A stretch of 59,821 nucleotides of DNA from Thermoanaerobaculia bacterium (GTDB lineage Bacteria; Acidobacteriota; Thermoanaerobaculia; Gp7-AA8): NCBI GenBank assembly GCA_036390755.1, contig DASWBH010000020.1:1-59821 (forward strand), written 5' to 3'. Positions 22,547 through 58,157 of this stretch are shown piece after piece. Made by a program: the position numbers and the translations under genes. Under the pieces are notes generated by a model. It did not search any database, was not told the origin of the DNA, and worked only from the letters and a program-made list of their open reading frames with translations. How positions within the stretch are numbered: position 1 is the first letter of the stretch; each line of letters starts with the position of its first letter.

Positions 22547-22562
22547 CCAGGTGACAGATCCT

Positions 22563-22576: not shown

Positions 22577-22625
22577 GTTCGCGCCGGTGCCCGCTCCGCA
22601 GAATGAATCTCGGAGGAACACAGCA

Positions 22626-28109: not shown

Positions 28110-28493
28110 ATGCCCAAAGCCGCCGAAGCACTGAGCCGCCGCGAACGCGAAATGATGAACATCATCTTTCGCCACGGCCGGGCCACAGCCACCGAAGTCA
28201 TGGAGCAGATGAACGACGCTCCGAGCTACTCCGCCGTTCGCGCAACGTTGCGCGTTCTCGAGCAGAAGGGACACGTCCGGCATCAGCATGACGGAACGCG
28301 CTACGTCTACATTCCGACGCTGGCGCGGGAGAAAGCGCGCGCGAATGCGCTCGATCAACTCCTCAACACGTTTTTCGACGGATCGGCCGCGAATGTCGTG
28401 GCGACACTCCTGGAAAGAAGAGAACGGCTAACTTCAGAAGAGCTCGAGCGTCTATCGGGCATGATCGACGCCGCACGGCGAGAGGGACGCTGA
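28110..28493 (+). CDS. BlaI/MecI/CopY-family repressor
   Basis: LSRREREMM, SYSAVRATLRVLEQKGHV, FFDGSAANVV. Confidence 0.92.
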   Translation: MPKAAEALSRREREMMNIIFRHGRATATEVMEQMNDAPSYSAVRATLRVLEQKGHVRHQHDGTRYVYIPTLAREKARANALDQLLNTFFDGSAANVVATLLERRERLTSEELERLSGMIDAARREGR

Positions 28494-28494
28494 C

Positions 28495-41386: not shown

Positions 41387-41452
41387 CCGGTAAGAATGCA
41401 ACAGGCTGGCGCATCCCGCAATGCTAGAATCGCAACACGCCTGAGGACTCGA

Positions 41453-41668
41453 ATGGCCCGGTATCTCCAAAAAATCTCCCTCCGTCCTTACGCCGATACC
41501 GAGATCTGGACGGGCTGGGAGCTCGAGGGCCGGAGCGGCGAAATCGAGGGACTCGTTCTCGCCGAGCACATGACCGACGACGAGCTTGCGCGGCTCGGCG
41601 TGACCGAGTTCCACAAGATCCCCGCCGAGTACATCGACTCGGGTGAGTTCATCCCGAAACGGAACTAG
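41453..41668 (+). CDS. Small acidic hypothetical protein (71 aa)
   Basis: GAGGA RBS, good codon bias, fills the gap before the methyltransferase. Confidence 0.6.
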   Translation: MARYLQKISLRPYADTEIWTGWELEGRSGEIEGLVLAEHMTDDELARLGVTEFHKIPAEYIDSGEFIPKRN

Positions 41669-41670: not shown

Positions 41671-42264
41671 CTGATCAAACGCTACGACCGCGCTTACTTC
41701 GACAAGTGGTACCGAAGCCGCTCGCATCGGGTGCACGAGCAGGGCGATGTTCGCCGGAAAGTCGCGCTTGCCGTCTCAACCGCCGAGTACTTTCTCCGCC
41801 GGCCGATCGAAGACGTTCTTGACATCGGGTGTGGCGAAGGTGCGTGGCTGAAGCATCTGCGCGCGCTGAGACCGCGCGCGATGTACGCCGGGATCGACTC
41901 GAGCGATTACGTTGTTGAACGATTCGGCGCCGAGCGCAACATCAGGAAAGGTTCGTTCTCCGATCTGCGAAAGTTCCACGGCTCGTTCGATCTCGTCGTC
42001 TGCGCAGACGTGCTGCACTACATTGGCGATCGCGAGCTGCAGCGCGGCATCTCGCATCTCGAGCGACTCACCGACGGAATCGCGTTCATCGAGATTCTGA
42101 CGACCGGGGACGATATCGTCGGAGACACGGAAGAACTGATCCGCCGTCCGGCGGAGTGGTACCGGCAACTGTTCGAGCGAGCGGGATTCGTGCAGGCGGG
42201 CCCGTATTGCTGGTTGCCGGAGTCGATGCACGACGTGGCGGCGGAGCTCGAGATCGTCCGCTAA
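41671..42264 (+). CDS. Class I SAM-dependent methyltransferase (probable CTG start)
   Basis: VLDIGCGEG, FDLVVCADVLHY; frame open back to 41647 and encodes YDRAYFDKWY upstream of the tracked start. Confidence 0.8.
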   Translation: MIKRYDRAYFDKWYRSRSHRVHEQGDVRRKVALAVSTAEYFLRRPIEDVLDIGCGEGAWLKHLRALRPRAMYAGIDSSDYVVERFGAERNIRKGSFSDLRKFHGSFDLVVCADVLHYIGDRELQRGISHLERLTDGIAFIEILTTGDDIVGDTEELIRRPAEWYRQLFERAGFVQAGPYCWLPESMHDVAAELEIVR

Positions 42265-44945: not shown

Positions 44946-44966
44946 AACCGCGACATTATCGCGGAA

Positions 44967-45380
44967 TCAGGCGATCGCGACTTCCTGGCCTGTCACCTGG
45001 AAGTAGAATTTCGCGAGCTGTTCGTTCGTGAAGTCACTCCAGCCGCGGCACGTGTCGCGCACGGTCTGCTGGACGTCGCACGCGATCGGAAGCTCATAGA
45101 CCTCCTGCTGCGCGAGCTGCCAGTCGTTGGCGATCACTTCGAGCTGCTCGCGGTTCAGGTCCGGACGTTTCTTCACGATCCAGTCGTAGCGCCGGCGCAG
45201 ATCTTCGTCGCCGTACTGATTGAAGCCATTGCAGAAAATGCCGCGTTCCGCTGCGACTTTGCAGATCGAGTTTTCGATGTCGGTGAACTTCGCCAGCGCG
45301 TTGCGAAGTCTGATGACGAGCTCGGTCCGCGTGATCGTCTCGAGCTTCGGTGCCGACTGTTTCTTGAGAGGTTTGGGCAT
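44967..45380 (-). CDS. Hypothetical protein with two C-x9-C-x-G-[FW] repeats
   Basis: GGAGG RBS; CKVAAERGIFCNGF and CDVQQTVRDTCRGW. Confidence 0.7.
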   Translation of the reverse strand: MPKPLKKQSAPKLETITRTELVIRLRNALAKFTDIENSICKVAAERGIFCNGFNQYGDEDLRRRYDWIVKKRPDLNREQLEVIANDWQLAQQEVYELPIACDVQQTVRDTCRGWSDFTNEQLAKFYFQVTGQEVAIA

Positions 45381-45449
45381 AGCGCCTCCGTCTTCCTCGG
45401 ATGATGCTACCGAGGCAAACCGGGAGCGGTATGACGGCTCACATGCCGG

Positions 45450-45465
45450 TGTGATGAACAACACA
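45450..45465. promoter_or_regulatory. CRP-like box TGTGA-TGAACA-ACACA
   Basis: 9/10 consensus in a divergent intergenic region. Confidence 0.7.
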
Positions 45466-45500
45466 CCACCCTGTGGGTCGCGGAGAGTTCACTAGCCGCC

Positions 45501-46727
45501 ATGTTGAAACCGGTGGAGCTCGAGATCGAACTCTTCTGCCGCGGCATGCGCATCGGCGAGTCATGCCACGCCGGTGAAGTCGGCCGCAGGATCACCCGCA
45601 CGCGGGCCGGCCTCGGTTCGGGTCTCGAGATCGTCATCCCCGGCCCGAAGGACATCTGGGTCAACGTTCCGGTGATCGAGCGGTTCGCGCAGCACTCGGC
45701 TTTCACGCTTCACGAGACGAGCGACGGCTTCTTCGTCGCCGACGTGCGAAACGGCATCGAATACCCGGTTTCGATTCCGGCTGAACCGGCGTGGTATTCG
45801 CGGAACACCTCCTCCGACGTTCCGATGAGCCGCATCGGCGTCCTGCAAGGGAACTACCTCGGCATCTACGTTTCGGCGCGATGTCTGTACTGGAGCTCGA
45901 CGATCGACGCGGCGTGCAAATTCTGTACGACGGGAAAGAACGTCGGGACCGCTGAGGAGTCGCGCAAGCGGGTCGAAGACGTCGTCGAGGTCGCGCGCGC
46001 GGCGCGCGATGAGTCAGGCGCGATCTTCACGCATTTCAACACCGGCTATCACTACGAGGATCGTGACGAACGCGAGAACATGCACGGCCTGCACATGTGC
46101 GAACCGTACGTGCGCGCCGTTCGCGAACACGTCGGCGGATTCATCGGCGTGCAGGCTGTTCCCGTGCCGCGGCGGAAGTTCTACGAATATGACTCGCTCA
46201 TCGAAGCGGGCACCGACCACTTCTCGTTCTGCTATGAGTTCGAGGATCCGGAAGTCTTCGCACGCATCTGCCCGGGCAAAGCGCAGACGCTCGGGCAGAG
46301 CGCGTTTTTCGAGGCGATGGAGTACACCGCGAAAAAACTCGGACGCGGCCGCGTATCGGGCGAGATCATCGCCGGAGTGGAATCGATCGAGGCGACGAAG
46401 CGCGGGATCGACCGGATCGTCGACGCCGGAGCGTTCCCGACCGTGTGCATCTTCCGTCCGACGATCGGCAGCGAGATGGAAAACGATCCGCCTCCCGATC
46501 CCGAACCGATGCGCGAAGTCTTCGCCTACCTTCACGAAAGCTGCCGTCGCGCCGGTCTGCCGGTCGGCATCCTTCCCATCGAAGTGTCGCTCGTCGTTCA
46601 GCCGGAAGAGACCGCAGCGCTCGTCGAGCCGACGTTCGCCGGCCACGCGTACCACTTCAAGAACTGGACACTGCGCCAGCTCGCGAAGCCGTACGTCGCC
46701 TGGAAGAAACGGCCCCAGGCCGCGTAA
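45501..46727 (+). CDS. Radical SAM protein with expanded C-x10-C-x2-C motif (MSMEG_0568-like)
   Basis: CLYWSSTIDAACKFC; CPGK; GEIIAGVE; PTVCIFRPTIGS. Confidence 0.75.
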   Translation: MLKPVELEIELFCRGMRIGESCHAGEVGRRITRTRAGLGSGLEIVIPGPKDIWVNVPVIERFAQHSAFTLHETSDGFFVADVRNGIEYPVSIPAEPAWYSRNTSSDVPMSRIGVLQGNYLGIYVSARCLYWSSTIDAACKFCTTGKNVGTAEESRKRVEDVVEVARAARDESGAIFTHFNTGYHYEDRDERENMHGLHMCEPYVRAVREHVGGFIGVQAVPVPRRKFYEYDSLIEAGTDHFSFCYEFEDPEVFARICPGKAQTLGQSAFFEAMEYTAKKLGRGRVSGEIIAGVESIEATKRGIDRIVDAGAFPTVCIFRPTIGSEMENDPPPDPEPMREVFAYLHESCRRAGLPVGILPIEVSLVVQPEETAALVEPTFAGHAYHFKNWTLRQLAKPYVAWKKRPQAA

Positions 46728-46748
46728 GCGATTACCATTCCGCGCAGT

Positions 46749-47201
46749 TTGATCAACGCAAGGTTCGGCCACACGAATCTCGTCGCGCAGGACTGGCGTG
46801 TCCTCGCCGGCTTCTATCAGCGCGTGTTCGGCTGCACTCCGGTCCCGCCGGAGCGGGACTTCCGCGGCGCCGATCTCGACGCCGGCACGGGACTGACCGG
46901 CGCGCATCTCACCGGCGCACACCTCAGGCTGCCCGGCCACGGCGCGAACGGCCCGACGCTCGAGATTTTTCACTACGACGAGCTCGAGCCGCGTTCGCCG
47001 TCGGCCGTGAACCGGCCGGGGTTCGCGCATATCGCGTTCGCGGTCGACGACGTCGCTGCGGCGCGCAAGGAAGTGCTCGCGTCCGGCGGCCGCGCGATCG
47101 GCGAGATCGTCACGCTGCGCGTCGCGACCGGCGCACGCGTGACGTGGTGCTACGTCACCGATCCGGAAGACAACATCGTCGAATTGCAGAGCTGGAGCTA
47201 G
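46749..47201 (+). CDS. VOC/glyoxalase family protein
   Basis: HTNLV, LEIFHY, GFAHIAFAVDD, YVTDPEDNIVEL. Confidence 0.88.
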   Translation: MINARFGHTNLVAQDWRVLAGFYQRVFGCTPVPPERDFRGADLDAGTGLTGAHLTGAHLRLPGHGANGPTLEIFHYDELEPRSPSAVNRPGFAHIAFAVDDVAAARKEVLASGGRAIGEIVTLRVATGARVTWCYVTDPEDNIVELQSWS

Positions 47202-47210
47202 GAGGACGCA

Positions 47211-47705
47211 ATGGCCATTGCCGATTCGCTGCTTCCGGAGTTCGATCGTGAGATGAGCGTCACGCGCAAACTTCTCGATCGCGTACCCGAGGACAAGATT
47301 GCCTGGAAGCCCCATCCGAAGTCGTACTCGCTCGGCGATCTCGCGATCCACGTCGCGAACATCCCGACGTGGATCAGGTTCATCGTGAACGACGACTTGT
47401 TCGACACAGCGGCACCATTTCAGCGGCCGGCGCCGTTTTCGACGCGCAGTGCAGCGCTCGAATTTTTCGACAACAACGTACTCACCGCGCGCGCCGCTCT
47501 GGCGTCGGCCTCGGACGCTCGGCTAATGGGCCCGTGGTCGCTCAAGCACGGCGAGCAGACGCTCTTCACGATGCCGCGCGTCGCGGTGCTCCGCTCGTTC
47601 GCAATGAACCACCACATCCATCATCGCGGACAGCTCACCGTTTACCTGCGCATGCACGACGTTCCGCTGCCGAACATGTATGGCCCGACAGCCGACGAGC
47701 GTTAG
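47211..47705 (+). CDS. DinB family protein
   Basis: WKPHPKS, LAIHVA, NHHIHHRGQL. Confidence 0.9.
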   Translation: MAIADSLLPEFDREMSVTRKLLDRVPEDKIAWKPHPKSYSLGDLAIHVANIPTWIRFIVNDDLFDTAAPFQRPAPFSTRSAALEFFDNNVLTARAALASASDARLMGPWSLKHGEQTLFTMPRVAVLRSFAMNHHIHHRGQLTVYLRMHDVPLPNMYGPTADER

Positions 47706-47709
47706 GCAC

Positions 47710-48171
47710 CTAGTGATCGCGCTTCACCAGCGCTGACGAGAGCCGCGACACGCGCCCGCCCGCGATCGACGTGAATCGCGCCAGCGCGCCGAACTCGCGG
47801 TTCGTCATGCGGCGTCCGAGGTCGGATTGAGCAAGGATGCCGACGAGGGTGCCGTCGGCGAGGATCACCGGCAGGTGATGGATCGCGTTCTCCTCCATCA
47901 GCTCGATCGCTTTCTCGATCGGCTCGTCGGCCTCGACGGCGATCACCGGTCTGGTCATGCAGGCATCCGCACTCAAACCGGACGCGTCGAGCCGCGGCGC
48001 CACACCGCGCAGCGCGATGTCGCGATCCGTGATGATTCCGATGAGCTTTCCCGACTCGGTCACCGGAATCGCGGCGCAGCCGTGGTCGGTCATGAGCTGC
48101 GCGACCAGACGAAGGCTGGTCTTCCGGTCGCAGGCAGCGGGGTTGGGCGTCATAGCATCGCGAACTCTCAT
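47710..48171 (-). CDS. CBS-pair protein
   Basis: VRDAMT, GIITDRDI, CMT, HHLPVI, GILAQSDL. Confidence 0.9.
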   Translation of the reverse strand: MRVRDAMTPNPAACDRKTSLRLVAQLMTDHGCAAIPVTESGKLIGIITDRDIALRGVAPRLDASGLSADACMTRPVIAVEADEPIEKAIELMEENAIHHLPVILADGTLVGILAQSDLGRRMTNREFGALARFTSIAGGRVSRLSSALVKRDH

Positions 48172-48238
48172 GGGAGCCTCCACCCGGCAGTCTTGTTCCG
48201 GGCACAGCGCTACGCAGCGGCGGCCGGTGCGAGGCTGG

Positions 48239-48254
48239 TGTGACCGGCGACACA
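48239..48254. promoter_or_regulatory. CRP-like box TGTGA-CCGGCG-ACACA
   Basis: 9/10 consensus, centred about 76 nt from both divergent starts (CBS, hypC). Confidence 0.7.
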
Positions 48255-48323
48255 GGGTCTGGTGAGCACAGTCATTAGGGCAATTCCGGAGCAGACGTAG
48301 CCTGCGATCTACGGAGGTAGCGT

Positions 48324-48617
48324 ATGTGTCTCGGCGTGCCCGGCCAGATTGTCTCGATTCAAAAGAACGTTGCGTCTGTTGAATTCTGGGGAACGCGGAA
48401 GAGCGTCAGGCTCGTGGGTTTGACCGACCACGTGCTCCCCGGCGACTACATCATCGAACACGCAGGCTACGCGGTGCGGCGCATTCCCACCGCGGACGTG
48501 GCCGATACTCTCGCGCTCTACGAAGTGCTCCTCACTGAAGCGGGAGAGGATCCCATCGCGCGCGACATCATCGACGAGCTTTCAGAGGAGCGCGAGCTCG
48601 ACGAAGTGCTCGTCTGA
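48324..48617 (+). CDS. hypC: HypC/HupF-family chaperone with acidic C-terminal extension
   Basis: MCLGVPGQI N-terminus, GDYIIEHAGYA; GGAGG RBS. Confidence 0.85.
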   Translation: MCLGVPGQIVSIQKNVASVEFWGTRKSVRLVGLTDHVLPGDYIIEHAGYAVRRIPTADVADTLALYEVLLTEAGEDPIARDIIDELSEERELDEVLV

Positions 48618-48623
48618 TTTGAA

Positions 48624-49454
48624 ATGCGCGACTACGAGTTCCGCCCGACACGGATTGCTGTCCTCACGTCTTTTTCAGCGCCCGGTATTACCGATCTTCT
48701 GGCAAGCTCCTCACGCGGAACGGCGTTCGAGATCGCTGGCGTGATCTCGTCCGAGACTTCGCTACAGGCGCAGGACGTGATCGAAGCGGCGGGTGTTCCC
48801 GTCGTCATGCATCCAATCCGCCGATTTCATTCGGACAATCGCCTGCCGCTGCGCAACCTGCACGCGCGCGTGGAGTACGACTATAAAACCGCCGAGATTC
48901 TTCAAGGCCTGAAGGCGGAGTACGTCATTGCGGCGGGCTACCGGTTCATCATGACCGCGCCGCTGCTTTCCGAGTTCCCGCGGCGCATCATCGCGATCCA
49001 GGACGCTGATCTGACGGGAGTCGATGTGCATGGCGGACGTCCGCACGCCGGCCTCGACGCCGTCCGCGATGCGATTCTCGGCGGTGCGGAGTCGACCCGC
49101 TCCACCGCGTATTTCGTGACCGAGGACGTCGGCCGCGGGCCGTTGTTCATGGTCAGCGCGCGCTATCCGGTCGCGCCGCTCGCGCGCGAAGCGCTGGCGC
49201 GCGGCGCGTACCAGGAGCTAGACACATACGCGGCGCTGCACCGCTGGTGGATGCGCGTGTCCGCGTTCGGCGAGATGATGCCGCGCATCGCGGAGATCGT
49301 AGCCGCCGGTACGATGCAGATCGTCGGCGACGTCGTCTGGATCGACGGCGTTCCCGGTCCCTGCCGCATGGGCGAAGCCGCTTCGATCTGCGCCGATCGA
49401 CAGGCGCCCCTCGGTCCGGGCGTTCCTGAGAGCTGCCCCTACATCAAGCGATAA
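48624..49454 (+). CDS. PurN-like formyltransferase-fold protein with substituted catalytic residues and Cys-containing tail
   Basis: RIAVLTS, AAGYRFIM, IAIQDADL (vs NIHPSLL), YFVTEDVGRGP (vs HFV..LDxGP). Confidence 0.75.
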   Translation: MRDYEFRPTRIAVLTSFSAPGITDLLASSSRGTAFEIAGVISSETSLQAQDVIEAAGVPVVMHPIRRFHSDNRLPLRNLHARVEYDYKTAEILQGLKAEYVIAAGYRFIMTAPLLSEFPRRIIAIQDADLTGVDVHGGRPHAGLDAVRDAILGGAESTRSTAYFVTEDVGRGPLFMVSARYPVAPLAREALARGAYQELDTYAALHRWWMRVSAFGEMMPRIAEIVAAGTMQIVGDVVWIDGVPGPCRMGEAASICADRQAPLGPGVPESCPYIKR

Positions 49455-49674
49455 CGCGCCGGCACGGGCAGAAATCGCCACTCGCTGGTCGGCACATCCG
49501 CACGTTCACGTGTTTCGATCGCGCGTGCCCGCACTGCCCGCACATCGCCGCGGATTCGCCTGCCGTGAATCCGGTGCAGACGCACGGGTAGTCTTCCGAC
49601 GGGTAATGAATCATCACCTCGCAGATGTTGGCGATGTGGTGCTCGACCTCGGTGTGCGGACAGGGATCGGTCAT
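49444..49674 (-). CDS. Small Cys/His-rich protein (76 aa, 9 Cys, 6 His)
   Basis: Two C-x-H-x4-H-x5-C...C-x-C repeats; GAGG upstream; fills the gap. Confidence 0.65.
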   Translation of the reverse strand: MTDPCPHTEVEHHIANICEVMIHYPSEDYPCVCTGFTAGESAAMCGQCGHARSKHVNVRMCRPASGDFCPCRRVIA

Positions 49675-49690
49675 GCGGCGAACACCCTCA

Positions 49691-49706
49691 TGTGCGCGAA
49701 GTCACA
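49691..49706. promoter_or_regulatory. CRP-like box TGTGC-GCGAAG-TCACA
   Basis: 9/10 consensus between divergent genes. Confidence 0.65.
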
Positions 49707-49785
49707 GGGCCGTGTGCGTGCAGTCATCGGCCCGCCGCCGCTGCGGTGTTGTGATCGGCGAGAAAGAAAAGGACGGATACCGCCG

Positions 49786-50787
49786 ATGGAAACGAACCGT
49801 GCCCATATCGTGGTGTGGGAGTTGACCCGCGCATGTAAGTTGTCCTGCACCAATTGCGCGATCGGAGCCCTGCCCCGGCGCGCGCCGATGGAGCTTTCAA
49901 CATACGAAGCATACAAAACCATCGACCAGGTCGTCGCGCTCAGGCCGGAAGAACTGATCCTGACCGGCGGCGATCCGCTCGAGCGGGCAGACATTTACCA
50001 GTTGATCGATTACGCGCGGCGCCGCGGCCTGCGGCCCTCGATGATGGTCAGTCCGACCGCGCTTCTGACCGGCGCCTCTGTCGGAAAGCTGAAGAGAAAC
50101 GGCCTGGCGCGCCTCATCGTCAGTGTCGATTCGTCCACGCCCGACCGCCACGATTCGATCCGCGGCGCCCACGGACAGTTCGCGGCCACGCTGCTGGCGA
50201 TCCGCTGGGCGCGCACGGCCGCGCTGCCGGTCGAGGTGAACACTCTCGTCTCGCATCGCAACATGGGCGACCTCGACTCCCTCGCCTCCCTTCTTGGTGA
50301 TCTCGGCGTCGAGCGCTGGAGCGTTTACTTCGTCGTTCCTATCGGCGGATCCAAGCATCTCGAAACGCTGTCGCCGGAGGAATCGGAACGGGTCCTCGAG
50401 AGGCTGCAGACCATGCGCACAAAGGTGCCGTTCACGATCCGGACGTTTGAAGCGCCGCAATACCGTCAGATCGAGCGCATGGACACGCTCTTCATCTCGC
50501 ATACCGGCGAAGTCAGCATCAGCCCGTTCCTGCCGGTGACGGCGGGCAACATCCGCTATCAGCCGCTGTCGTCGCTCGATCGCTCGAGCGATCTGCTGAT
50601 CGCTCTGCGCGATGATTCGAACCTCAAGGGAAAATGCGGCCGGTGCGAGTACCGCCGCACGTGCGGCGGGTCCCGGGCACGCGCGTACGCGATGACCGGC
50701 GACGTATTTGCCGCCGACCCGCTCTGCAGCTATCAGCCCGGAACGGCCACCGGTACGCCGCTGGTCGATCGCGGAGGAGCGGCGTGA
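49786..50787 (+). CDS. Radical SAM/SPASM protein, Ahb/NirJ-like (BA_1875-type)
   Basis: VWELTRACKLSCTNC, LTGGDPL, CGRCEYRRTCGGSRARAYA...DPLC. Confidence 0.85.
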   Translation: METNRAHIVVWELTRACKLSCTNCAIGALPRRAPMELSTYEAYKTIDQVVALRPEELILTGGDPLERADIYQLIDYARRRGLRPSMMVSPTALLTGASVGKLKRNGLARLIVSVDSSTPDRHDSIRGAHGQFAATLLAIRWARTAALPVEVNTLVSHRNMGDLDSLASLLGDLGVERWSVYFVVPIGGSKHLETLSPEESERVLERLQTMRTKVPFTIRTFEAPQYRQIERMDTLFISHTGEVSISPFLPVTAGNIRYQPLSSLDRSSDLLIALRDDSNLKGKCGRCEYRRTCGGSRARAYAMTGDVFAADPLCSYQPGTATGTPLVDRGGAA

Positions 50788-51818
50788 CGGTTTACGATCC
50801 TCGAGCGACGCCGTGGCAGATCGATGAGAGCGAGTTCTATGAGCTCGACGATCGCCGGGCGCAGCTCGAGTTTCTGGTCCGCTACGCGATCCTCGCGCCG
50901 TCGGGCCACAACACCCAGCCGTGGTCGTTCAACATCGTCGGCGACGGAATCGAGATCTTCGCCGACTTTACGCGCAGGCTGCCGGTCGCCGATCGTGGGA
51001 ATCGCGAGCTCCTGATGAGCATCGGCGCCGCGATCACGAACCTTCGCGTCGCAGCGGCTCACTTCGGATACGAGACGACGGCTCTCTATCACCGCGGCGT
51101 GGATGACGATCCGGCCGTCGCGCGGGTCGCACTGCGGGAAACCTGCTCGGCTGATTCGTCGCTGCGGAAGCTGTTTCCGGCGATCGTCGCACGTCGCACG
51201 AACCGGCAGCCGTTCGATGGTCGTCCGATTGACGAATCGGTGCTCGCGGCGGTGTGCGACCTCATCGAGGAGCAGCCGGAAATGATGCGCTTCGTCCAGC
51301 CGCACGATCGCGCGCGAGCCGCGGATCTCGTTGCCGAGGGCGATCGCCAGCTCATGACGAATCCCGCGTTCCGGCAAGAAGTCGCGGCATGGATGCGGCC
51401 GAACGAAACGTTCGCCGGCGACGGCGTCTGCGGCGACGCGTTCGGAATCCTCGGCCCGGTCTCCGCGCTGGGCTCGTGGCTCGTGCGCAGCGTCGACCTC
51501 GGTCCGGCGCAGGCGAAGCACGATCGCGATCTGGCTGCGAACGCATCCGGTCTGATCGTGATCACTGGCGATGACGACCGTCGGTCCCTGATCCGCTCCG
51601 GCGAAGCGCTGGAGCGGCTCCTGCTGCTCCTCACGACCCTCGGAATCCAGTACTCGTTCCTCAACCAGCCGGTCGAAGTCGAGCAGTTGCGCAACGAGCT
51701 CTGGTCGATGATCCGCTCGCCGAAGCCGCCGCAGTTGATGGTCCGTATCGGCTACTCGACGCCTGTGCGCCGCCCGATGCCGCGCCGGCCGATCGAGACC
51801 GTTCTGGCGTCATCCTGA
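50784..51818 (+). CDS. Acg-family FMN-binding nitroreductase-like protein
   Basis: AILAPSGHNTQPW, SIGAAITNL, RRTNR, YSFLNQPVE, PQLMVRIGY, PRRP. Confidence 0.88.
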   Translation: MTVYDPRATPWQIDESEFYELDDRRAQLEFLVRYAILAPSGHNTQPWSFNIVGDGIEIFADFTRRLPVADRGNRELLMSIGAAITNLRVAAAHFGYETTALYHRGVDDDPAVARVALRETCSADSSLRKLFPAIVARRTNRQPFDGRPIDESVLAAVCDLIEEQPEMMRFVQPHDRARAADLVAEGDRQLMTNPAFRQEVAAWMRPNETFAGDGVCGDAFGILGPVSALGSWLVRSVDLGPAQAKHDRDLAANASGLIVITGDDDRRSLIRSGEALERLLLLLTTLGIQYSFLNQPVEVEQLRNELWSMIRSPKPPQLMVRIGYSTPVRRPMPRRPIETVLASS

Positions 51819-51846
51819 GCCGCGAAGACGGCGCTCAGGATGACGC
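51807..51846. repeat. REP-like 14-bp-stem hairpin GCGTCATCCTGAGC...GCTCAGGATGACGC between convergent genes
   Basis: Perfect stem, 12-nt loop; includes the nitroreductase stop codon. Confidence 0.85.
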
Positions 51847-51852
51847 TTCGCG

Positions 51853-54800
51853 TCACTTCAGTGCCGCGAGGTAGCTGTACATCTTCCACCGCGCGTCCAC
51901 ATCGTGCTGCGCCGCGGCGATGAGCTCCTGCGCCTCTTCCGCATCGCCTTTCAGCAACTGGTTGAACCGGTTCTCGGTCTTGAGGAACTGCTCGACCGGC
52001 ATCTTGATGCCGCGCGAATCGAGCTGCAGCGGGTTCTCGCCGGTCGCGTTGCGATCGGGGTTGTAGCGGTACAGGAGCCACTGACCGGCGTCGACCATCG
52101 CCTTCTGATGCTGCAGGCCCGACGCAATGTCGATTCCATGCGCGATGCAGTGGCTGTACGCGATGATCAGCGACGGTCCGTCGTACGCCTCAGCCTCGAT
52201 GAAGGACTTGAGCGTGTGCTCATCTTTCGCGCCGAGAGCAACGCTGGCGACATAGACGCTGCCGTACGTCATCGCGATCAGTCCCAAGTCTTTCTTGCCG
52301 GCAGGCTTGCCGCCCGCCGCGAATTTCGCGACCGCGCCGCGCGGTGTTGCCTTGGACGCCTGCCCTCCGGTGTTCGAGTAGACCTCGGTGTCGAGGACCA
52401 GGATGTTCACGTTCCTGCCGCTGGCGAGGACGTGGTCGAGTCCACCGAATCCGATGTCGTATGCCCATCCGTCCCCGCCGACAATCCAGACGCTCTTCTT
52501 CACGAGGTAGTCCGCCAGCATGAGCAGCTGCTGCTCATCGGTCGGGTCATCCTTGTGCATCCGCGTGGCGAGCTCGGTGCGGCGCAGGCGCGACTTCAGA
52601 AGCTCGACGCGCTCGCGCTGCTCGGCGATTTCCGCTTCGTCCTTCTGCTCGCACTCGACGATCGCCTCGACCAGGCTCTCCCCGAGTTGCGGAGCGAGCT
52701 TCTTCGCGAGGTCGGTCGCAAAGTCGCGCTGCTTGTCGATCGAGACGCGGAAGCCCAGCCCGAATTCGGCGTTGTCTTCGAACAGTGAGTTGCACCACGC
52801 CGGCCCGCGGCCGTCGGCGTTCGTGGTCCAAGGAGTCGTCGGCAGATTGCCGCCGTAGATCGACGAGCACCCGGTCGCGTTGGCAACGACCACGCGATCG
52901 CCGAAGAGCTGCGTCATCAGCTTCAGGTACGGCGTTTCGCCGCAGCCGGTGCACGCGCCGGAGAACTCGAACAGTGGTTGCGCGACCTGCACGCTGCGGA
53001 TCAGGTTCGGAATGATCGTGCGGCGATCGAGCTCCGGGATGCCCAGGAAGTAATCCCAGTTCTTCGCCTCAGGTTCGCGGAGCGGCGCCTGCGGCTGCAT
53101 GTACAGCGACTTGCGCGTGGGAGCGGCCTTGCTCTTCGCCGGGCAGACATCGACGCACAGCGTGCAGCCGGTGCAGTCCTCCGGTGCAACCTGGATCGTG
53201 TAGGCGAAACCTTTCCACTCTTTGTGAATCGGCTGCAGCGACTTGAACGTCGGCGGCGCCGTATGCGTCAGCGCTTCGTCGTAGACCTTGATGCGGATCG
53301 CGGCGTGCGGACACACCATGGCGCACTTGCCGCACTGAATGCAGCCTGACGTATCCCACACCGGGATTTCCTGCGCGAGATTGCGCTTCTCGAATTTCGT
53401 CGTGCCCGGAAGGAATGTGCCGTCGCACGGGAGAGCGCTGACTGGCAGATCGTCGCCGCGGCCGGCGAGCATCACACCGAGCGGAGTCCCGTCGATCACG
53501 CTCGCTGCGTGGAACGGCTCGACCGCGACCGTGGCCGGCAGGGCAACTTCGTGCAACGCGGCCAGCGCGTTGTCGACAGCCTTGAGGTTCTTCTCGACGA
53601 TCGCGTCACCCTTCGAGCCGTATGTCTTGCGAATCGATTTGCGGATCGCTTCGAGGGCTTCGTCGGCAGGCATGACGTTCGCCAGCTTGAAGAAGCAGAC
53701 CTGCATGATCGTGTTGATGCGCGAGCCCATGCCGCTTTCGCGCGCGACTTTGGTCGCGTCGATGACATAGAGGTGCGCCTTCTTCTCGATCAGCTCGCGC
53801 ATCACGCGCGGAGGAATGGCCTCCTCGCTCCCGTTGAACAGGAACGTGCCGCCCGGAACGAGCTCCTTGACAACGGCGTAACGCTCGATCAGCGACGGCT
53901 GATGACAGGCGACGAAGTTCGCTTCGCCGATCAGATACGGCGCGTGAATCGGCCGCGGACCGAAGCGGAGGTGCGACACGGTCGCCGCGCCGGACTTCTT
54001 CGAGTCGTACACGAAGTAGCCCTGCGCGAAGTGTCCGGCGTCGCCGAGAATCTTGCAGGAGTTCTTGTTCGCACCAACGGTCCCGTCAGCGCCAAGGCCG
54101 TAGAACATCGCCCGGACGACGTCGTTCGCTTCGATCGAGAACGAAGGATCGTAGTCGATGCTGTTGTTCGTGATGTCGTCGTGGATGCCGACGACGAAGT
54201 GATTTCGCGGAGTGTCCTTCTTGATCTCGTCGAAGACACCCTTGACCATCGCCGGCGTGAATTCCTTCGACGACAGTCCGTACCGCCCGCCGACGACTCT
54301 CATCAGCCGTTGCGCTTCGAACAGCGCGGTGACGACGTCGAGATACAGCGGCTCGCCGTTGCTGCCCGGCTCTTTTGTGCGGTCGAGGACCGCCAGCGTC
54401 CTGGTCGTCGCCGGAATCGCGTTGACGAAGCCGGAGATATCGAACGGCCGATACAACCGGACCTTCAACACGCCGACCTTCTCGCCTCGCGCGGTGAGCG
54501 CGTCGACTGTTTCCTGCACCGTCTCGCAGCCGGAGCCCATCAGCACGATCACGCGATCTGCGTTCGGCGAGCCGTAGTACTCGTACGGCTTGTAGGTGCG
54601 GCCGGTGACGGCGGCGAATTTCTCCATCGCCACGCCGACGTGCTTCGCGCATTCGGCGTAGAACGGGTTCGATCTCTCTCGCGCCTGGAAGAAGACATCG
54701 GGATTCTGCGCGGTGCCGCGGACGACGGGGTGATCCGGCGACAGTGCGCGCGAGCGGTGCTCGAAAACGAGGCGGAGATCGATCATGGCGTGCATCTGCT

Positions 54801-55368
54801 CATCTGTGAGCACCACGATCTTCGAGACCTCATGCGACGTGCGGAAGCCGTCGAAGAAGTGGACGAACGGGATGCGCGATTCGAGCGTCGCCGAGTGCGC
54901 GATCAGAGCGAGATCGTGCGCCTCCTGGACGCTCGCGGAAGCCAGCATCGCCCAGCCGGTGGAGCGCACGGCCATGACGTCGGTGTGGTCGCCGAAGATC
55001 GACAGCGCGTGCGTTGCGATCGTTCGCGCCGCGACGTGCAGCACGGCAGGCGTCAGCTCGCCGGCGATCTTGAACATGTTCGGGACCATCAATAGCAGTC
55101 CCTGGGAGGACGTGAAGGTGGTGGCGAGGGCACCCGTCTGCAGGGCTCCGTGGATGGCGCCGGCGGCGCCCCCTTCGCTCTGCATCTCGATGACCGAAGG
55201 GATCGTGCCCCAGAGGTTCGGGCGCTTCTCGGCGGCCCAAGCGTCCGACCACTCGCCCATCGGCGACGAGGGGGTGATCGGGTAGATGGCGATGACTTCG
55301 TTCAGGGCATACGCGACGCGCGCGACGGCTTCGTTGCCGTCGAGCATGGCGTATTTTTCTGCAGACAT
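51853..55368 (-). CDS. nifJ: Pyruvate:ferredoxin (flavodoxin) oxidoreductase, single chain
   Basis: IYPITPSS, EMQSEGGAAG, CIQCGKC/CTGCTLC ferredoxin motifs, FSGACTGCGE, GGDGWAYDIG. Confidence 0.97.
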   Translation of the reverse strand: MSAEKYAMLDGNEAVARVAYALNEVIAIYPITPSSPMGEWSDAWAAEKRPNLWGTIPSVIEMQSEGGAAGAIHGALQTGALATTFTSSQGLLLMVPNMFKIAGELTPAVLHVAARTIATHALSIFGDHTDVMAVRSTGWAMLASASVQEAHDLALIAHSATLESRIPFVHFFDGFRTSHEVSKIVVLTDEQMHAMIDLRLVFEHRSRALSPDHPVVRGTAQNPDVFFQARERSNPFYAECAKHVGVAMEKFAAVTGRTYKPYEYYGSPNADRVIVLMGSGCETVQETVDALTARGEKVGVLKVRLYRPFDISGFVNAIPATTRTLAVLDRTKEPGSNGEPLYLDVVTALFEAQRLMRVVGGRYGLSSKEFTPAMVKGVFDEIKKDTPRNHFVVGIHDDITNNSIDYDPSFSIEANDVVRAMFYGLGADGTVGANKNSCKILGDAGHFAQGYFVYDSKKSGAATVSHLRFGPRPIHAPYLIGEANFVACHQPSLIERYAVVKELVPGGTFLFNGSEEAIPPRVMRELIEKKAHLYVIDATKVARESGMGSRINTIMQVCFFKLANVMPADEALEAIRKSIRKTYGSKGDAIVEKNLKAVDNALAALHEVALPATVAVEPFHAASVIDGTPLGVMLAGRGDDLPVSALPCDGTFLPGTTKFEKRNLAQEIPVWDTSGCIQCGKCAMVCPHAAIRIKVYDEALTHTAPPTFKSLQPIHKEWKGFAYTIQVAPEDCTGCTLCVDVCPAKSKAAPTRKSLYMQPQAPLREPEAKNWDYFLGIPELDRRTIIPNLIRSVQVAQPLFEFSGACTGCGETPYLKLMTQLFGDRVVVANATGCSSIYGGNLPTTPWTTNADGRGPAWCNSLFEDNAEFGLGFRVSIDKQRDFATDLAKKLAPQLGESLVEAIVECEQKDEAEIAEQRERVELLKSRLRRTELATRMHKDDPTDEQQLLMLADYLVKKSVWIVGGDGWAYDIGFGGLDHVLASGRNVNILVLDTEVYSNTGGQASKATPRGAVAKFAAGGKPAGKKDLGLIAMTYGSVYVASVALGAKDEHTLKSFIEAEAYDGPSLIIAYSHCIAHGIDIASGLQHQKAMVDAGQWLLYRYNPDRNATGENPLQLDSRGIKMPVEQFLKTENRFNQLLKGDAEEAQELIAAAQHDVDARWKMYSYLAALK

Positions 55369-55439
55369 GGGCGGGCTTCCTCCGCCCAGAACGTTAAATC
55401 GGCCGCGAACAACGGGTCATGCGGCTGATCATACGTCGG

Positions 55440-55455
55440 TGTGACGAACGTCACT
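55440..55455. promoter_or_regulatory. CRP-like box TGTGA-CGAACG-TCACT upstream of PFOR
   Basis: 9/10 consensus, centre about 80 nt upstream of the start. Confidence 0.75.
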
Positions 55456-55889
55456 CAGCGGGCGCCGCTGATCGCGCGCATGCAGTCCCAGCAGGCGTTC
55501 ACTTCTTCGCTGATGTAGTGCAGAACCTGCAGCCACAGAGCGGGTTGCTCGTCGAGCAGGGTCTCGAGCGTCTCGCGATCGACGAAGCCGATGGTGCACG
55601 GCGTACGGGTCGTGGCGGTGCAGTCGTTCGGGCAGCGCGAGACGATGCAGCTGAGGCCGAGGATCTGTCCCGGCTCGGCGACGCGAAGCGCTTTTGCTTC
55701 GCCGCTCTTCGCGGCAAACACGAGATCGACTTCGCCGGCGCGAAGGAAGTAGACACCGGCCGGCTCTCCCCCTTCACGGTAAAGCACATGCCCCTTAGGC
55801 ACATTCTGAACGCGCTCGTGCGGAATGAATGCATCCGTTACGACTGAACTCGATGCAGACTGCGGCTGTACATCGATGTCTGTCCTCAC
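55455..55889 (-). CDS. Stand-alone Crp-type effector domain protein, no HTH, Cys-rich
   Basis: LYREGGEPAGVYFLRAGEV, PGQILGL; ends ACWDCMRAISGAR. Confidence 0.85.
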   Translation of the reverse strand: MRTDIDVQPQSASSSVVTDAFIPHERVQNVPKGHVLYREGGEPAGVYFLRAGEVDLVFAAKSGEAKALRVAEPGQILGLSCIVSRCPNDCTATTRTPCTIGFVDRETLETLLDEQPALWLQVLHYISEEVNACWDCMRAISGAR

Positions 55890-55953
55890 TCGGTCACCTC
55901 AACGATATGCGACTTCCAGTGTCAGACGGTAGCGGCTGGGCAAGTCGACCTGC

Positions 55954-55969
55954 TGTGATATTCAGCACA
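55954..55969. promoter_or_regulatory. CRP-like box TGTGA-TATTCA-GCACA
   Basis: 9/10 consensus upstream of the HTH-less Crp gene. Confidence 0.65.
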
Positions 55970-56066
55970 CGCAAACGTGAGTCAGTGACGTGATCTGCAC
56001 GATCTTGTCACCAACAAAAACGGCGAGGTCGAAGCCTCGCCGTTTTTGATCACAAATCGATGTGCA

Positions 56067-56786
56067 CTAAACGCTGACCATGCTCTCGAGCTGCGGCTTG
56101 TTCGTAACGAACATGCTCGAGCCCTTCACGTCGATGATCTTCTTGCGCTTGAAATCGCTGAGCAGGCGCGTCACCGTCTCACGCGTGGTGCCGATCATCT
56201 GCGCGATCTCTTCGTGCGTCAGAAGCACCTTCAGGCGGACGCCCTTCGTGGTCTGCTCGCCGCCGCGGTCGCACCAGTCGAGGAGCAGGCGGGCCAGCTT
56301 CTCGGAGGTCGTCGCCGACAGGCCGAGCGAACGGATCTCGCGCTGCGCGGAGTGATACTTCTCACTCAGCTGCTGCGCCGTATGCATGCATGCCTCGGCA
56401 TGACCGCCCAGAAACTTCAGGAAGTCCTCGCGTTTGATGAAGTTCAGCTGCGATGGCTCGATCGTCTCGGCAGAAACTTCGTACGGCTTGCCGAGGATCG
56501 TGGCGCTCGCGCCGAGAACCTCACCCGGCTCGGCGATCTTCACGATGAGCGTCTTGCCTTCTGTGGAAGAAGTCGTGAGCTTTGCCCGACCACTGCACAG
56601 AATGAACACCCCGCGCGGCTCCTCGCCTTCGACGAACAGCAGCGATCCTTTCGGATAGAGACCGGTGAACTTCACCGAGTCCAGGGCATTGACGGTTCCA
56701 TCGGACATGTTGCAGAACAAGCGCTCGGCTCGGACCCGGCACTCACTGCAGTTGTATTCGACTTCGAGGTTGTAGGGCGACGGCAT
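56067..56786 (-). CDS. Crp/Fnr regulator with N-terminal Cys cluster and CRP-type recognition helix
   Basis: CSECRVRAERLFC; LFVEGEEPRG; LTHEEIAQMIGTTRETVTR. Confidence 0.92.
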   Translation of the reverse strand: MPSPYNLEVEYNCSECRVRAERLFCNMSDGTVNALDSVKFTGLYPKGSLLFVEGEEPRGVFILCSGRAKLTTSSTEGKTLIVKIAEPGEVLGASATILGKPYEVSAETIEPSQLNFIKREDFLKFLGGHAEACMHTAQQLSEKYHSAQREIRSLGLSATTSEKLARLLLDWCDRGGEQTTKGVRLKVLLTHEEIAQMIGTTRETVTRLLSDFKRKKIIDVKGSSMFVTNKPQLESMVSV

Positions 56787-56866
56787 AACTGCCTCCGATT
56801 TCTTCTAACGTCACATAATCTAGAAGCTGGGATCGCAATTCCGCATGGATGCAGGTCACGTGTTCG

Positions 56867-56882
56867 TGTGACAGTCATCACA
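56867..56882. promoter_or_regulatory. Perfect CRP box TGTGA-CAGTCA-TCACA
   Basis: 10/10 consensus upstream of the Crp/Fnr gene. Confidence 0.8.
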
Positions 56883-57507
56883 TCGTCGCCGCAACATCGT
56901 GCTCGCGCGTGGGAAAGCGGACCGTGAACTCCGCACCGCCGCCGGCACCGTTCTCCAGCGCGAACGGAAACCCGTGATTCCGCAGGACTTCCTGCACAAC
57001 AGTCAAGCCGATTCCGCGTCCCTCGCGTTTCGTCGTGAAGAACGGAGTAAACAGGTGCGGCCGATCGGAATCCGCAATTCCGGGTCCGCTGTCGGCGATC
57101 GTGAGCGTGCCGTCATGCAACGCGATGCGCACGGTCCCGTCCTCCCCCGCCGCATCCATTGCATTGCGGAGAACGTTCAGGACGACTTGCTCGAGCTGCA
57201 GCGCGTCAGCGTTGACGGTCTCATTGCCGTTGATGTCGATCTCCAGTTGAATTCGCCTCGCCTCGGCTTCCGGTGTGATCAACGCGATGAGGCCGCGGAG
57301 CGTGTCGGTGAAGTTCATCGTCGCGCGATGTGGCGAAGGAATGCGCACGACATCCGCGAAGCCGCTGACGAATCGTCCGAGCGCGTCGATGCGCCGCGAC
57401 GCCACTTCGAGCGCGGTCACGAAATCTTCGCGATCCTCGCTGCGCACGTCGCCCGTGTACCGCAACAACGACTCGAGCAGCGAGCGCACGGCGGCGACGC
57501 TGTTGGC
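56878..57507 (-). pseudogene. 5'-truncated sensor histidine kinase (HATPase_c intact, H-box lost)
   Basis: LEQVVLNVLRNA, IADSGPGI, FTPFFTTKREGRGIGL present; sequence before NSVAAVRSLL has no phospho-His and no sensor domain. Confidence 0.7.
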
Positions 57508-57627
57508 TCGAATCCGGACGCGACTGTCCGATAGCGGACACCCGATCACAAACACATGTGATGCGCTTGCTCGCCGCCTTCGCTTTCGCGACATACGTAA
57601 CGACTGGAGTCAACAAAGGAGGTACGT

Positions 57628-58104
57628 ATGAACAACCTGATGACTCGCTTTGACCGCGTTGATCCGTTTGATGAGCTGACCACGCTGCGCAATCGCTTCG
57701 ACCGGATCCTGAACCGCTTCACCGGAGAGAACGTCGAAGAGCCGATGATGACCGCGAAGTGGGCTCCCGCGGCTGACGTGCTCGAGACCAAAGACGCCTA
57801 TGTCGTCAAGGCCGAGCTGCCCGGAGTCGAGGAGAAGAACATCAACGTCGAAATCGAGAACGGCGTTCTGACCCTCAAGGGTGACAAGATGTTCGAGAAG
57901 GAGACGGAAGAAAAGGGCTATCGCCGCATCGAGCGGGCGTATGGCAACTTCCTCCGCACGTTCACCTTGCCGCAGAACGTCTACACCGACAAGATCACGG
58001 CGACGTTCTTCAACGGCGTCCTCGAAGTGACCGTTCCGAAGAAGGAAGAAGCGAAGCCGCGCAAGATCACGCTCGACATCAAGAAGAAACTTGCTGCGGC
58101 GTAA
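57628..58104 (+). CDS. Small heat-shock protein Hsp20
   Basis: PAADVLE, AELPGV, ERAYGNFLRTFTLP, NGVLEVTVPK; GGAGG RBS. Confidence 0.95.
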   Translation: MNNLMTRFDRVDPFDELTTLRNRFDRILNRFTGENVEEPMMTAKWAPAADVLETKDAYVVKAELPGVEEKNINVEIENGVLTLKGDKMFEKETEEKGYRRIERAYGNFLRTFTLPQNVYTDKITATFFNGVLEVTVPKKEEAKPRKITLDIKKKLAAA

Positions 58105-58129: not shown

Positions 58130-58157
58130 AGGCGGCCTGAAGAAGGCCGCCTTTTTC
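58130..58157 (+). terminator. Rho-independent terminator after hsp20
   Basis: AGGCGGCCT-GAAGA-AGGCCGCCT-TTTT. Confidence 0.85.

Follow-up and report, generated by a model that had tools for sequence, protein, structure and literature searches.

Do the CRP-type palindromes that are spread over a single gene cluster of a soil acidobacterium make up the regulon of a regulator encoded in the same cluster, and to which signal would such a regulon respond? The question is raised by a window of 59,821 bp, a term used here for the whole stretch of DNA that was analysed, which derives from a soil metagenome-assembled genome (MAG) of Thermoanaerobaculia (Acidobacteriota). The cluster examined covers 11.4 kb (approximately 45450-56882) and contains the gene of a CRP/FNR-family regulator, designated REG in the following, together with genes for pyruvate:ferredoxin oxidoreductase (PFOR), a HypC-family chaperone, two radical SAM proteins, and several further proteins. 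Six boxes of the type TGTGA-N6-TCACA are present in this cluster, and we regard them, with high confidence, as functional sites.

When at most one mismatch is allowed, TGTGA-N6-TCACA occurs exactly six times in the window, at the six positions listed in the initial annotation; one copy is perfect and the other five carry one mismatch each. The boxes are listed below without strand. Scores refer to a weight matrix that was trained only on boxes located upstream of REG orthologues in other genomes, and distances, which were re-derived from alignments after correction of start codons and checked by eye, run from the box center to the start codon.

45450-45465: box 1, TGTGATGAACAACACA, 15.9 bits; between the divergent genes for a 138-aa protein (ATG 45380, 77.5 nt) and a variant radical SAM protein (ATG 45501, 43.5 nt)
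48239-48254: box 2, TGTGACCGGCGACACA, 15.1 bits; between the divergent genes for a CBS-pair protein (63.5 nt) and HypC (77.5 nt); predicted position -63.5 for HypC
49691-49706: box 3, TGTGCGCGAAGTCACA, 15.1 bits; upstream of a radical SAM/SPASM gene (ATG 49786, 87.5 nt)
55440-55455: box 4, TGTGACGAACGTCACT, 16.3 bits; strong box of the PFOR gene (ATG 79.5 nt away), predicted position -63.5
55954-55969: box 5, TGTGATATTCAGCACA, 16.9 bits; 72.5 nt from the gene of a protein that consists of a cyclic nucleotide monophosphate (cNMP)-binding domain only; lineage-specific
56867-56882: box 6, TGTGACAGTCATCACA, perfect, 21.4 bits; strong autoregulatory box of REG (ATG 88.5 nt away), predicted position about -64.5

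The number expected by chance is 0.79 (standard deviation 0.9), and none of 100 dinucleotide shuffles reached six; in the remaining 47.8 kb of the window, no box with at most one mismatch is found. With corrected start codons all six boxes are intergenic, and each is centered 72.5-88.5 nt from at least one start codon, in agreement with the location at gene boundaries and the 72-89 nt given initially. A matrix scan against random sequence, proposed in the same annotation as a check, places the six boxes at ranks 1-6 (15.1-21.4 bits), separated by a gap from hit 7; the mean best score in random sequence is 12.9 bits and the 95th percentile of the null distribution is 17.4 bits. Eleven further matches have two mismatches, nearly all of them within genes. 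Among these is hit 7, a weaker site at 21838 (AGTGACTGCGGTCACC) that had been noted in addition to the six. It does exist, but its 10.6 bits lie below the random mean best score and a comparable site is present in only 3 of 34 related loci; it is indistinguishable from chance and was rejected as a member of the regulon. Coding DNA does not show a similar density of matches. The box density is 0.53/kb in the cluster, 0.175/kb in 71 loci that contain REG, and 0.014/kb, i.e., the chance level, in a control of 210 kb of contigs of related soil organisms taken around an unrelated gene. Out of 202 boxes in the related loci, 172 fall within -60 to +350 of a called start, and only 16 lie wholly in coding sequence.

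For comparison, one genome per GTDB species was scanned, which gave 71 acidobacterial loci whose REG orthologue shows 50-94% identity; a box was taken as conserved in an orthologue when it scored at least 12 bits and lay within 300 nt upstream. The most conserved box of all is that upstream of REG itself, which is present in 64 of 70 orthologues from two acidobacterial classes. Boxes are also retained upstream of PFOR (26/27), the radical SAM/SPASM gene (22/32 orthologues or paralogues), HypC (9/14, at a fixed distance of 76.5-79.5 nt), the CBS gene (7/11), the variant radical SAM gene (7/7), and the 138-aa gene (5/5), so that the proposed targets PFOR, HypC, both radical SAM genes, and the small Cys-containing protein keep their sites in other genomes. 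The gene for the cNMP-only protein has a box in just 2 of 16 orthologues. Five of the six boxes of the window are thus phylogenetically footprinted, and the initial proposal of a local regulon formed by the boxes and the adjacent regulator stands on the invariant recognition helix (see below) and the autoregulatory box, but not for the cNMP-only gene. The consensus of the conserved boxes is tGTGAy-N4-rTCACa, with C in 47%, T in 40%, and A in 3% of the cases at position 6.

The gene order is conserved as well. In Thermoanaerobaculia it reads REG, cNMP-only gene, PFOR, radical SAM/SPASM gene, formyltransferase-like gene, HypC, CBS gene, variant radical SAM gene, and 138-aa gene, whereas Terriglobales and Sulfotelmatobacter-type genomes have PFOR in divergent orientation to REG, with linkage and boxes retained; the linkage of REG and PFOR spans two classes. 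REG is found with 85-96% identity in more than 100 metagenomic clusters, and its closest relatives are annotated as soil Thermoanaerobaculia (Acidobacteriota) MAGs. The designation of the region as an island could not be maintained: the G+C content is 60-66% along the window without a shift at the cluster, and the gene order represents conserved chromosomal synteny, which led to the rejection of a genomic island. Genes found behind boxes in other genomes encode a multihaem cytochrome c fused to cytochrome b, a second 2-oxoacid oxidoreductase, tandem universal stress proteins (USPs), RIC/ScdA, and YwiC.

REG is encoded at 56067-56786 on the minus strand, and its domains (PF00027, 1.2e-17; PF13545, 4.3e-19; PF00325, 1.1e-10) place it in the CRP/FNR superfamily. 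It matches solved structures of CRP, NtcA, and FNR with a best identity of at most about 30%. The helix TRETVTR (residues 201-207) and the N-terminal Cys residues noted initially are present. Of 69 orthologues, 68 retain R202, E203, and R207 of the recognition helix R202-E203-T-V-T-R207; TGTGA-N6-TCACA is specified by Arg, Glu, and Arg at helix positions 1, 2, and 6 (PMC5701242). Cys13, Cys16, Cys25, and Cys64 are invariant across orthologues down to 50% identity, Cys133 is nearly so (66/69), and there is no Cys beyond residue 172. The description of the N-terminal Cys residues as FNR-like holds in part. According to BLASTP and hhalign, Cys13 and Cys16 fall on Cys20 and Cys23 of FNR, but Cys25 lies three residues past FNR Cys29, the pattern being C13-x2-C16-x8-C25 instead of C-x2-C-x5-C. 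FNR Cys122 aligns with REG residue 112 (encoded at about 56451-56453), which is Ser, Ala, or Gly in 41 of 41 sequences of the clade of the window and Cys in 23 of 28 distant orthologues (most Terriglobia, L044-L066); as most Terriglobia have Cys and Thermoanaerobaculia Ser or Ala at this position, the clades may ligate a cluster differently. The residues E72, R82, and S83, by which CRP contacts cAMP, pair with A93, K100, and P101 of REG in the hhalign alignment, which is somewhat uncertain in this loop. Since the cAMP contacts, the equivalent of Cys122, and the Cys spacing differ, REG is neither CRP nor a canonical FNR. By its sequence it represents an uncharacterised, highly conserved acidobacterial subfamily of CRP/FNR proteins, for which a Cys-ligated cluster with a different fourth ligand appears plausible.

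Information on the mode of action of the boxes comes from their position relative to predicted promoters. For this purpose, 143 orthologous promoters were oriented toward the gene and numbered from base 1 of the strong box. A hexamer TAnnnT, as expected for a -10 region, starts at p60 in 32% and at p61 in 15% of these promoters, and at any other position between 17 and 99 in 2% at most; in 47% of the promoters the hexamer is thus located 51.5-52.5 nt downstream of the center of the strong box. The peak recurs in five unrelated promoter families, p60/p61 being occupied in 19 of 26 PFOR promoters (17 of them at p60 itself), 8 of 8 HypC promoters (all at p60), 28/64 for REG, 9/22 for radical SAM, and 3/7 for CBS. 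A second box-like element is located exactly 22 bp downstream, center to center, at 23% of the strong boxes compared to a background of 0.05%, and never at a spacing of 21 or 23 bp. Its center precedes the first base of the hexamer by 29.5 nt, which corresponds to class II CRP/FNR geometry relative to a predicted start. In the lineage of the window, the left half of this proximal element, nGTGAc, is conserved, and its right half, GTCAtc, is degenerate. The elements assigned in the window are as follows.

56845-56860, minus strand: proximal degenerate box of REG, CGTGACCTGCATCCAT, 22 bp downstream of box 6, predicted position about -42.5; left half nGTGAC conserved across REG promoters
56817-56822, minus strand: predicted -10 hexamer TAGATT of REG, at the TAnnnT peak p60/p61
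56809-56815, minus strand: half-site TGTGACG right after the REG -10 hexamer; its counterpart is a full third box in Terriglobia (e.g., L046:9925-9940)
55418-55433, minus strand: proximal degenerate box of PFOR, TATGATCAGCCGCATG, predicted position -41.5
55391-55396, minus strand: predicted -10 hexamer TAACGT of PFOR, followed by GGAGG and the ATG at 55368
49713-49728, plus strand: proximal element of the radical SAM/SPASM gene, TGTGCGTGCAGTCATC, 22 bp downstream of box 3
48261-48276, plus strand: proximal element of HypC, GGTGAGCACAGTCATT, predicted position -41.5
48298-48303, plus strand: predicted -10 hexamer TAGCCT of HypC, TAnnnT at p60
45428-45443, minus strand: proximal element of the 138-aa gene, TGTGAGCCGTCATACC
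45404-45409, minus strand: -10-like hexamer TAGCAT of the 138-aa gene, 3 nt nearer than usual
45488-45493, plus strand: TTCACT, candidate -10 hexamer of the variant radical SAM gene, whose ATG (45501) follows after 7 nt

Because the position of the hexamer puts the degenerate box at -41.5, a position of about -63.5 is predicted for the strong box, 22 bp further upstream. The -10 peak at p60/p61 rules out the class II position for the strong boxes, and with it the initial expectation of transcription starts about 41.5 nt from their centers; a check on that basis would fail for the strong boxes even if the regulon is real, as the start is predicted at about 63.5 nt. The leaders predicted for the target promoters are 13-25 nt long and contain GGAGG. 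A -35 consensus is not apparent, and a sigma-70 scan of 45300-57700 yielded no -35/-10 pair; the absence of a -35 element points to activation. We consider activation by the tandem arrangement probable. The variant radical SAM gene appears to follow another scheme: in 6 of 7 orthologues the box center is located 39.5-43.5 nt from the ATG, TTCACT precedes the ATG by 6-7 nt in 5 of 7, and no Shine-Dalgarno sequence was found ahead of the ATG at 45501, a combination which suggests a leaderless class II promoter with box 1 at about -42.5. At the REG promoter, the half-site at 56809-56815 is a candidate autorepression site at the predicted start, and the third box or half-box at this place suggests combined positive and negative autoregulation.

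The genes of the cluster and those beyond its REG end are arranged as follows.

42261-44945, minus strand: GNAT plus ADP-forming acyl-CoA-synthetase-like protein, in an operon with the 138-aa gene (21-nt gap)
44967-45380, minus strand: 138-aa protein with four invariant Cys, first gene of the operon 42261-45380
45501-46727, plus strand: variant radical SAM protein (NF045502, 178 bits)
46749-47201, plus strand: VOC/glyoxalase protein (Pfam), 21-nt gap after the variant radical SAM gene
47211-47705, plus strand: DinB-family protein (Pfam), 9-nt gap, closing the operon 45501-47705
47710-48183, minus strand: CBS-pair protein (Pfam CBS), divergent from HypC
48324-48617, plus strand: HypC-family chaperone (Pfam HupF_HypC; TIGR00074)
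48624-49454, plus strand: formyltransferase-like protein (Pfam Formyl_trans_N), 6 nt after HypC
49786-50787, plus strand: radical SAM/SPASM protein, AhbD/NirJ-like (TIGR04053, 343 bits, under the cut-off of 395)
50784-51818, plus strand: Acg-family flavin mononucleotide (FMN) oxidoreductase (NF047509, 295 bits), overlapping the radical SAM/SPASM gene by 4 nt in a two-gene operon
51853-55368, minus strand: pyruvate:ferredoxin (flavodoxin) oxidoreductase PFOR, 1171 aa (TIGR02176, 1741 bits; Pfam)
55455-55889, minus strand: cNMP-binding-domain-only protein, 144 aa, without helix-turn-helix (HTH) domain (Pfam; synteny)
56067-56786, minus strand: REG, CRP/FNR-family regulator, 239 aa (Pfam cNMP_binding, HTH_Crp_2, and Crp)
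56878-57594, minus strand: small histidine kinase
57628-58104, plus strand: Hsp20
58156-59751, minus strand: amino-acid permease

In the model that we favor, REG would bind tGTGAy-N4-rTCACa boxes via its R-E-x3-R helix and control its own gene, PFOR, HypC with the formyltransferase-like gene, the radical SAM/SPASM gene with that of the Acg-type nitroreductase, the CBS gene, the variant radical SAM/VOC/DinB operon, and the 138-aa Cys protein with the GNAT/acyl-CoA-synthetase-like gene; the cNMP-only protein, which lacks an HTH, would be a target in the lineage of the window only. Two REG dimers would bind side by side, one to the strong box at about -63.5 and one to the degenerate box at -41.5, and the proximal dimer would serve as a class II activator, while the extra half-box at the start site of the REG promoter may add autorepression. 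The signal would be loss of oxygen or a reducing state, sensed by an iron-sulfur cluster ligated by Cys13, Cys16, and Cys25 and, in addition, by Cys64, Cys133, or a non-Cys ligand, and the cluster of genes would act as a hypoxia/anoxia module that turns on oxygen-labile, ferredoxin-linked metabolism. The boxes, their conservation, the geometry of the promoters, and the motifs of the protein were observed directly; binding by REG, activation, cooperativity of the tandem boxes, and the nature of the signal are what we infer from comparisons at the level of sequence. The model of a low-oxygen activator circuit as a whole appears to us rather probable, and oxygen as the signal is a tentative assignment. 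The gene content, i.e., PFOR, the radical SAM enzymes, HypC, Acg, and CBS, fits a low-oxygen response, as do the multihaem cytochrome, the tandem USPs, RIC, and the second 2-oxoacid oxidoreductase behind boxes in relatives. The module would combine oxygen-labile, ferredoxin-linked enzymes (PFOR, the two radical SAM enzymes, and a maturation set centered on HypC) with stress proteins (the Acg-type nitroreductase and the CBS protein). It is a speculation that the acyl-CoA-synthetase-like gene completes a route from pyruvate via acetyl-CoA to acetate and ATP.

An origin as chance matches, or as a repeated intergenic element devoid of a regulatory role, has a negligible probability: a single site of 15-17 bits is no more than the best hit in 60 kb of random sequence may reach, but the presence of six sites where 0.79 are expected, their clustering, their location outside genes in every case, and their recurrence at orthologous positions in dozens of genomes whose spacers and flanks vary effectively refute it, and the intergenic regions gave no match to an Rfam family when structured RNAs were looked for. 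PFOR and fermentation genes are typical targets of the NADH-sensing repressor Rex, whose operator is very like the boxes. The Rex consensus is TTGTGAA-N4-TTCACAA (PMC2883068), and a similar repeat is also given in PMC5701242. At position 6, however, Rex prefers A (with T at position 11), whereas the boxes have C or T in 87%; in addition, the box upstream of REG is co-inherited with REG and the geometry is that of an activator. Rex operators, a very improbable reading, were rejected because of position 6 and this co-inheritance, and no rex gene is among the genes annotated in the window. A second CRP/FNR paralogue (21863-22648, minus strand) has the helix TLETAIR, and its palindrome is yATGAy-N4-GTCATr, with a perfect copy (TATGACAAAAGTCATG) at 22562-22577 between the paralogue and RIC/ScdA; as both helix and box are different, it was rejected as the factor for the six boxes, and it probably controls a separate regulon for nitrosative stress or iron-sulfur cluster repair. 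Oriented divergently to this paralogue are RIC/ScdA (about 22630-23393) and a YwiC-like gene (region 21863-24168). REG, in turn, is very likely the cognate factor because of its invariant helix, the box of its own gene, the different box of the other paralogue, and the Rex mismatch at position 6. One could still assume that REG occupies the strong box in a class I-like manner and that another CRP/FNR protein, e.g., the second paralogue, binds at -41.5. The paralogue box is conserved upstream of the paralogue in at least 21 of 36 loci (a 25-bit copy at 22562), and the right half GTCAT(C/G) of the proximal elements of HypC and radical SAM is closer to it than to TCACA; with the paralogue matrix, the PFOR proximal element reaches at least 8 bits in 6 of 26 genomes (e.g., CATGACGCCGGTCATG). 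The PFOR proximal element of the window scores just 2.1 bits with this matrix, however, the REG, 138-aa-gene, and Terriglobia promoters have proximal elements that are clearly of the GTGA type, the REG matrix gives 8 bits or more for 14 REG and 9 radical SAM promoters and the paralogue matrix for none, and the rigid 22-bp spacing is explained most simply by two copies of one protein. We therefore judge promoters with two different regulators to be unlikely.

With REG as the binding protein, the direction of control and the signal are still to be weighed. Proteins of the CRP/FNR family can repress, and the box or half-box at the predicted REG start would suit a REG that is mainly a repressor, its boxes being operators that block RNA polymerase. 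HcpR2 has likewise been modelled as a repressor (PMC5701242). The boxes, however, are located upstream of the -10 hexamer at a fixed distance, the proximal one lies at the site of a class II activator, and a -35 is lacking; since repression requires neither phasing to the -10 nor a promoter without -35, this role is decidedly unlikely. An alternative with the same regulator and the same boxes is that REG responds to another signal, namely nitric oxide (NO) or nitrosative stress, a thiol-disulfide redox change, a metal, or a small ligand of the beta-roll, which is possible though not favored. It could be argued from the Ser or Ala at the fourth FNR ligand position in the clade, from the Cys spacing unlike that of FNR, and from RIC/ScdA, typical of NO regulons, behind a box in one Terriglobales locus. 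The FLP protein of Lactobacillus is a thiol-disulfide redox sensor with two Cys. HcpR1 of Desulfovibrio, with the same box, is thought to be an NO sensor (PMC5701242). Against a signal other than oxygen, hcp, nor, and nir are absent from the conserved targets, the core of which (PFOR, radical SAM, HypC) is defined by oxygen lability, RIC of the window adjoins the other paralogue and the different box of that paralogue, and an oxygen-sensing cluster ligated by three Cys and another residue has a precedent in Bacillus Fnr (bioRxiv 10.1101/2020.01.03.894683).

Several observations weigh against the low-oxygen activator model. In the protein, these are the x8 spacing of the third N-terminal Cys and the non-Cys residue 112 in the clade of the window; AlphaFold2 models of REG built from 25 or 48 sequences reached a pLDDT of 52 and 51, with the sensor domain unmodelled, and give no view of the proximity of the Cys residues. 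On the DNA side, the window has proximal boxes of low score (-2 to 5 bits) and lacks a clear -10 hexamer in its radical SAM/SPASM promoter, and the PFOR proximal elements of some relatives, which resemble the paralogue box, belong here, too. Promoters of orthologues do not count as independent observations in the statistics, and the regulon described here is the part that lies within about 10 kb on each side of the REG orthologues. All sequencing runs in which the sequence of the window occurs are soil metagenome DNA runs; none is an RNA run.

Sensors of oxygen or NO that use a CRP-type box are already known from Bacillus Fnr and Desulfovibrio HcpR1, and reading a regulon from DNA is standard comparative genomics. 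Fnr of Bacillus subtilis and Paenibacillus, as proposed here for REG, is an oxygen sensor of the CRP/FNR family that recognizes TGTGA-N6-TCACA and acts as an anaerobic activator, its cluster being ligated by three Cys and one Asp (bioRxiv 10.1101/2020.01.03.894683). The ligands of the Bacillus protein are the C-terminal C227, C230, and C235 and Asp141, whereas the conserved Cys residues of REG are N-terminal (13, 16, 25) and internal (64, 133); the similarity in sequence is one at the family level only. To our knowledge, tandem boxes with 22-bp spacing are not a feature of Bacillus Fnr promoters. E. coli FNR shares with REG the N-terminal Cys-rich extension before the beta-roll and has, as predicted for REG, the class II position -41.5, autoregulation, and an anaerobic regulon, but the identity is 22-23%, the Cys spacing is x5 instead of x8, and Cys122 stands in place of Ser; the FNR helix E-x2-S-R and box TTGAT-N4-ATCAA contrast with RETVTR and TGTGA-N6-TCACA, and in the REG promoters the strong box is at -63.5 and only the weak one at -41.5. 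HcpR/HcpR1 of Desulfovibrio has R, E, and R at helix positions 1, 2, and 6, recognizes TGTGA-N6-TCACA, is autoregulated, and had its regulon predicted from DNA (PMC5701242), but its targets are hcp and nitrosative-stress genes and its presumed cofactor is haem, whereas the REG targets are PFOR, radical SAM, and HypC genes and REG has a conserved Cys set. CRP of E. coli, CRP of M. tuberculosis (Rv3676), and GlxR of Corynebacterium have the box and the helix residues of REG and are among the closest solved structures; they lack its N-terminal Cys extension, and the cAMP contacts differ. In M. tuberculosis, hypoxia induces protein families such as Acg-family nitroreductases, CBS-pair proteins, Hsp20, and USPs. 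The likeness to the DosR dormancy regulon is one of content only (Acg nitroreductase, NF047509, Rv3131 family; CBS-pair protein; nearby Hsp20; tandem USPs in relatives), since DosR is a response regulator of the NarL type with another DNA motif, PFOR and HypC are not its targets, and REG is a CRP/FNR protein.

New in the present case are the subfamily and its phylum, the pattern of the Cys residues, and the fixed combination of a strong box at -63.5 with a weak one at -41.5. A literature search found no publication on a CRP/FNR regulator of Acidobacteria, and for tandem -41.5/-63.5 promoters a search yielded clinical papers only; the paper on the nanoxia transcriptome of A. capsulatum (PMC11636273) mentions neither CRP nor FNR nor PFOR. 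The mechanism would extend the CRP/FNR paradigm in an expected way. In Acidobacteriota, which rank among the most abundant soil bacteria, gene regulation and the response to the frequent oxygen loss in soil aggregates are nearly unstudied; the results offer a testable model of the anoxia response of uncultured soil bacteria, a motif for annotating regulons in acidobacterial MAGs, and a marker set for the metatranscriptomic detection of anoxic microsites. A further-reaching version, in which REG represents a new class of FNR-like sensors and the master hypoxia switch of soil Acidobacteriota, with non-canonical ligands (three N-terminal Cys plus Cys64/Cys133 and no Cys122) and an obligate pair of dimers on boxes spaced by 22 bp, is doubtful. 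If it were true, the high-affinity anchor at -63.5 that loads the weak site at -41.5 would create a steep cooperative switch, possibly tuned by the cNMP-only paralogue, and REG would be a functional analogue, from another regulator family, of the mycobacterial dormancy switch DosR.

Some features of the cluster and of its surroundings deserve mention. The cNMP-only protein corresponds to a CRP-like beta-roll and C-helix with partly conserved Cys residues (C133 in 26/28, C90 in 21/28), and its gene is located directly downstream of REG in both Thermoanaerobaculia and Terriglobia (e.g., L001:10868-11293, L044:10817-11293). It could form heterodimers with REG and modulate it. HypC, the PurN/formyltransferase-like protein, the AhbD/NirJ-like radical SAM/SPASM protein, and the Acg-type nitroreductase (48324-51818) form a conserved set without a hydrogenase structural gene nearby, which may serve in the maturation of an unknown metal cofactor; the formyltransferase-like protein is reminiscent of the N-terminal module of HypX. 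The histidine kinase (56878-57594) has no sensor, its end falls within box 6, and it is separated by 33 nt from the divergent Hsp20 gene. In some relatives (L016, L021), Hsp20 is directly divergent from REG, with a box in common.

Outside the cluster, an operon at 371-6081 (minus strand), which has no REG box, encodes complex I-like subunits (NuoB-like, NuoC, NuoD, NuoH, NuoI) with no NuoE/F/G between NuoD and NuoH. Its arrangement is that of the ferredoxin-dependent or 11-subunit complex type and would suit electrons from PFOR. An extracellular electron-transfer module is present in the region 16905-20845, where the gene of an MtrB/PioB-type outer-membrane porin (16905-19229) adjoins that of a multihaem cytochrome c (19245-20282); next to this module is the gene of a Cu/Zn superoxide dismutase. 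At 28110-30840 (plus strand), a BlaI/MecI-type repressor is followed by a BlaR1-like M56 peptidase with TPR repeats, the two forming a signal-transducing pair. A fourth protein with a cNMP-binding domain in the 60-kb window is encoded at 40469-41614 (minus strand), in this case a membrane protein in which this domain is combined with DUF1003.

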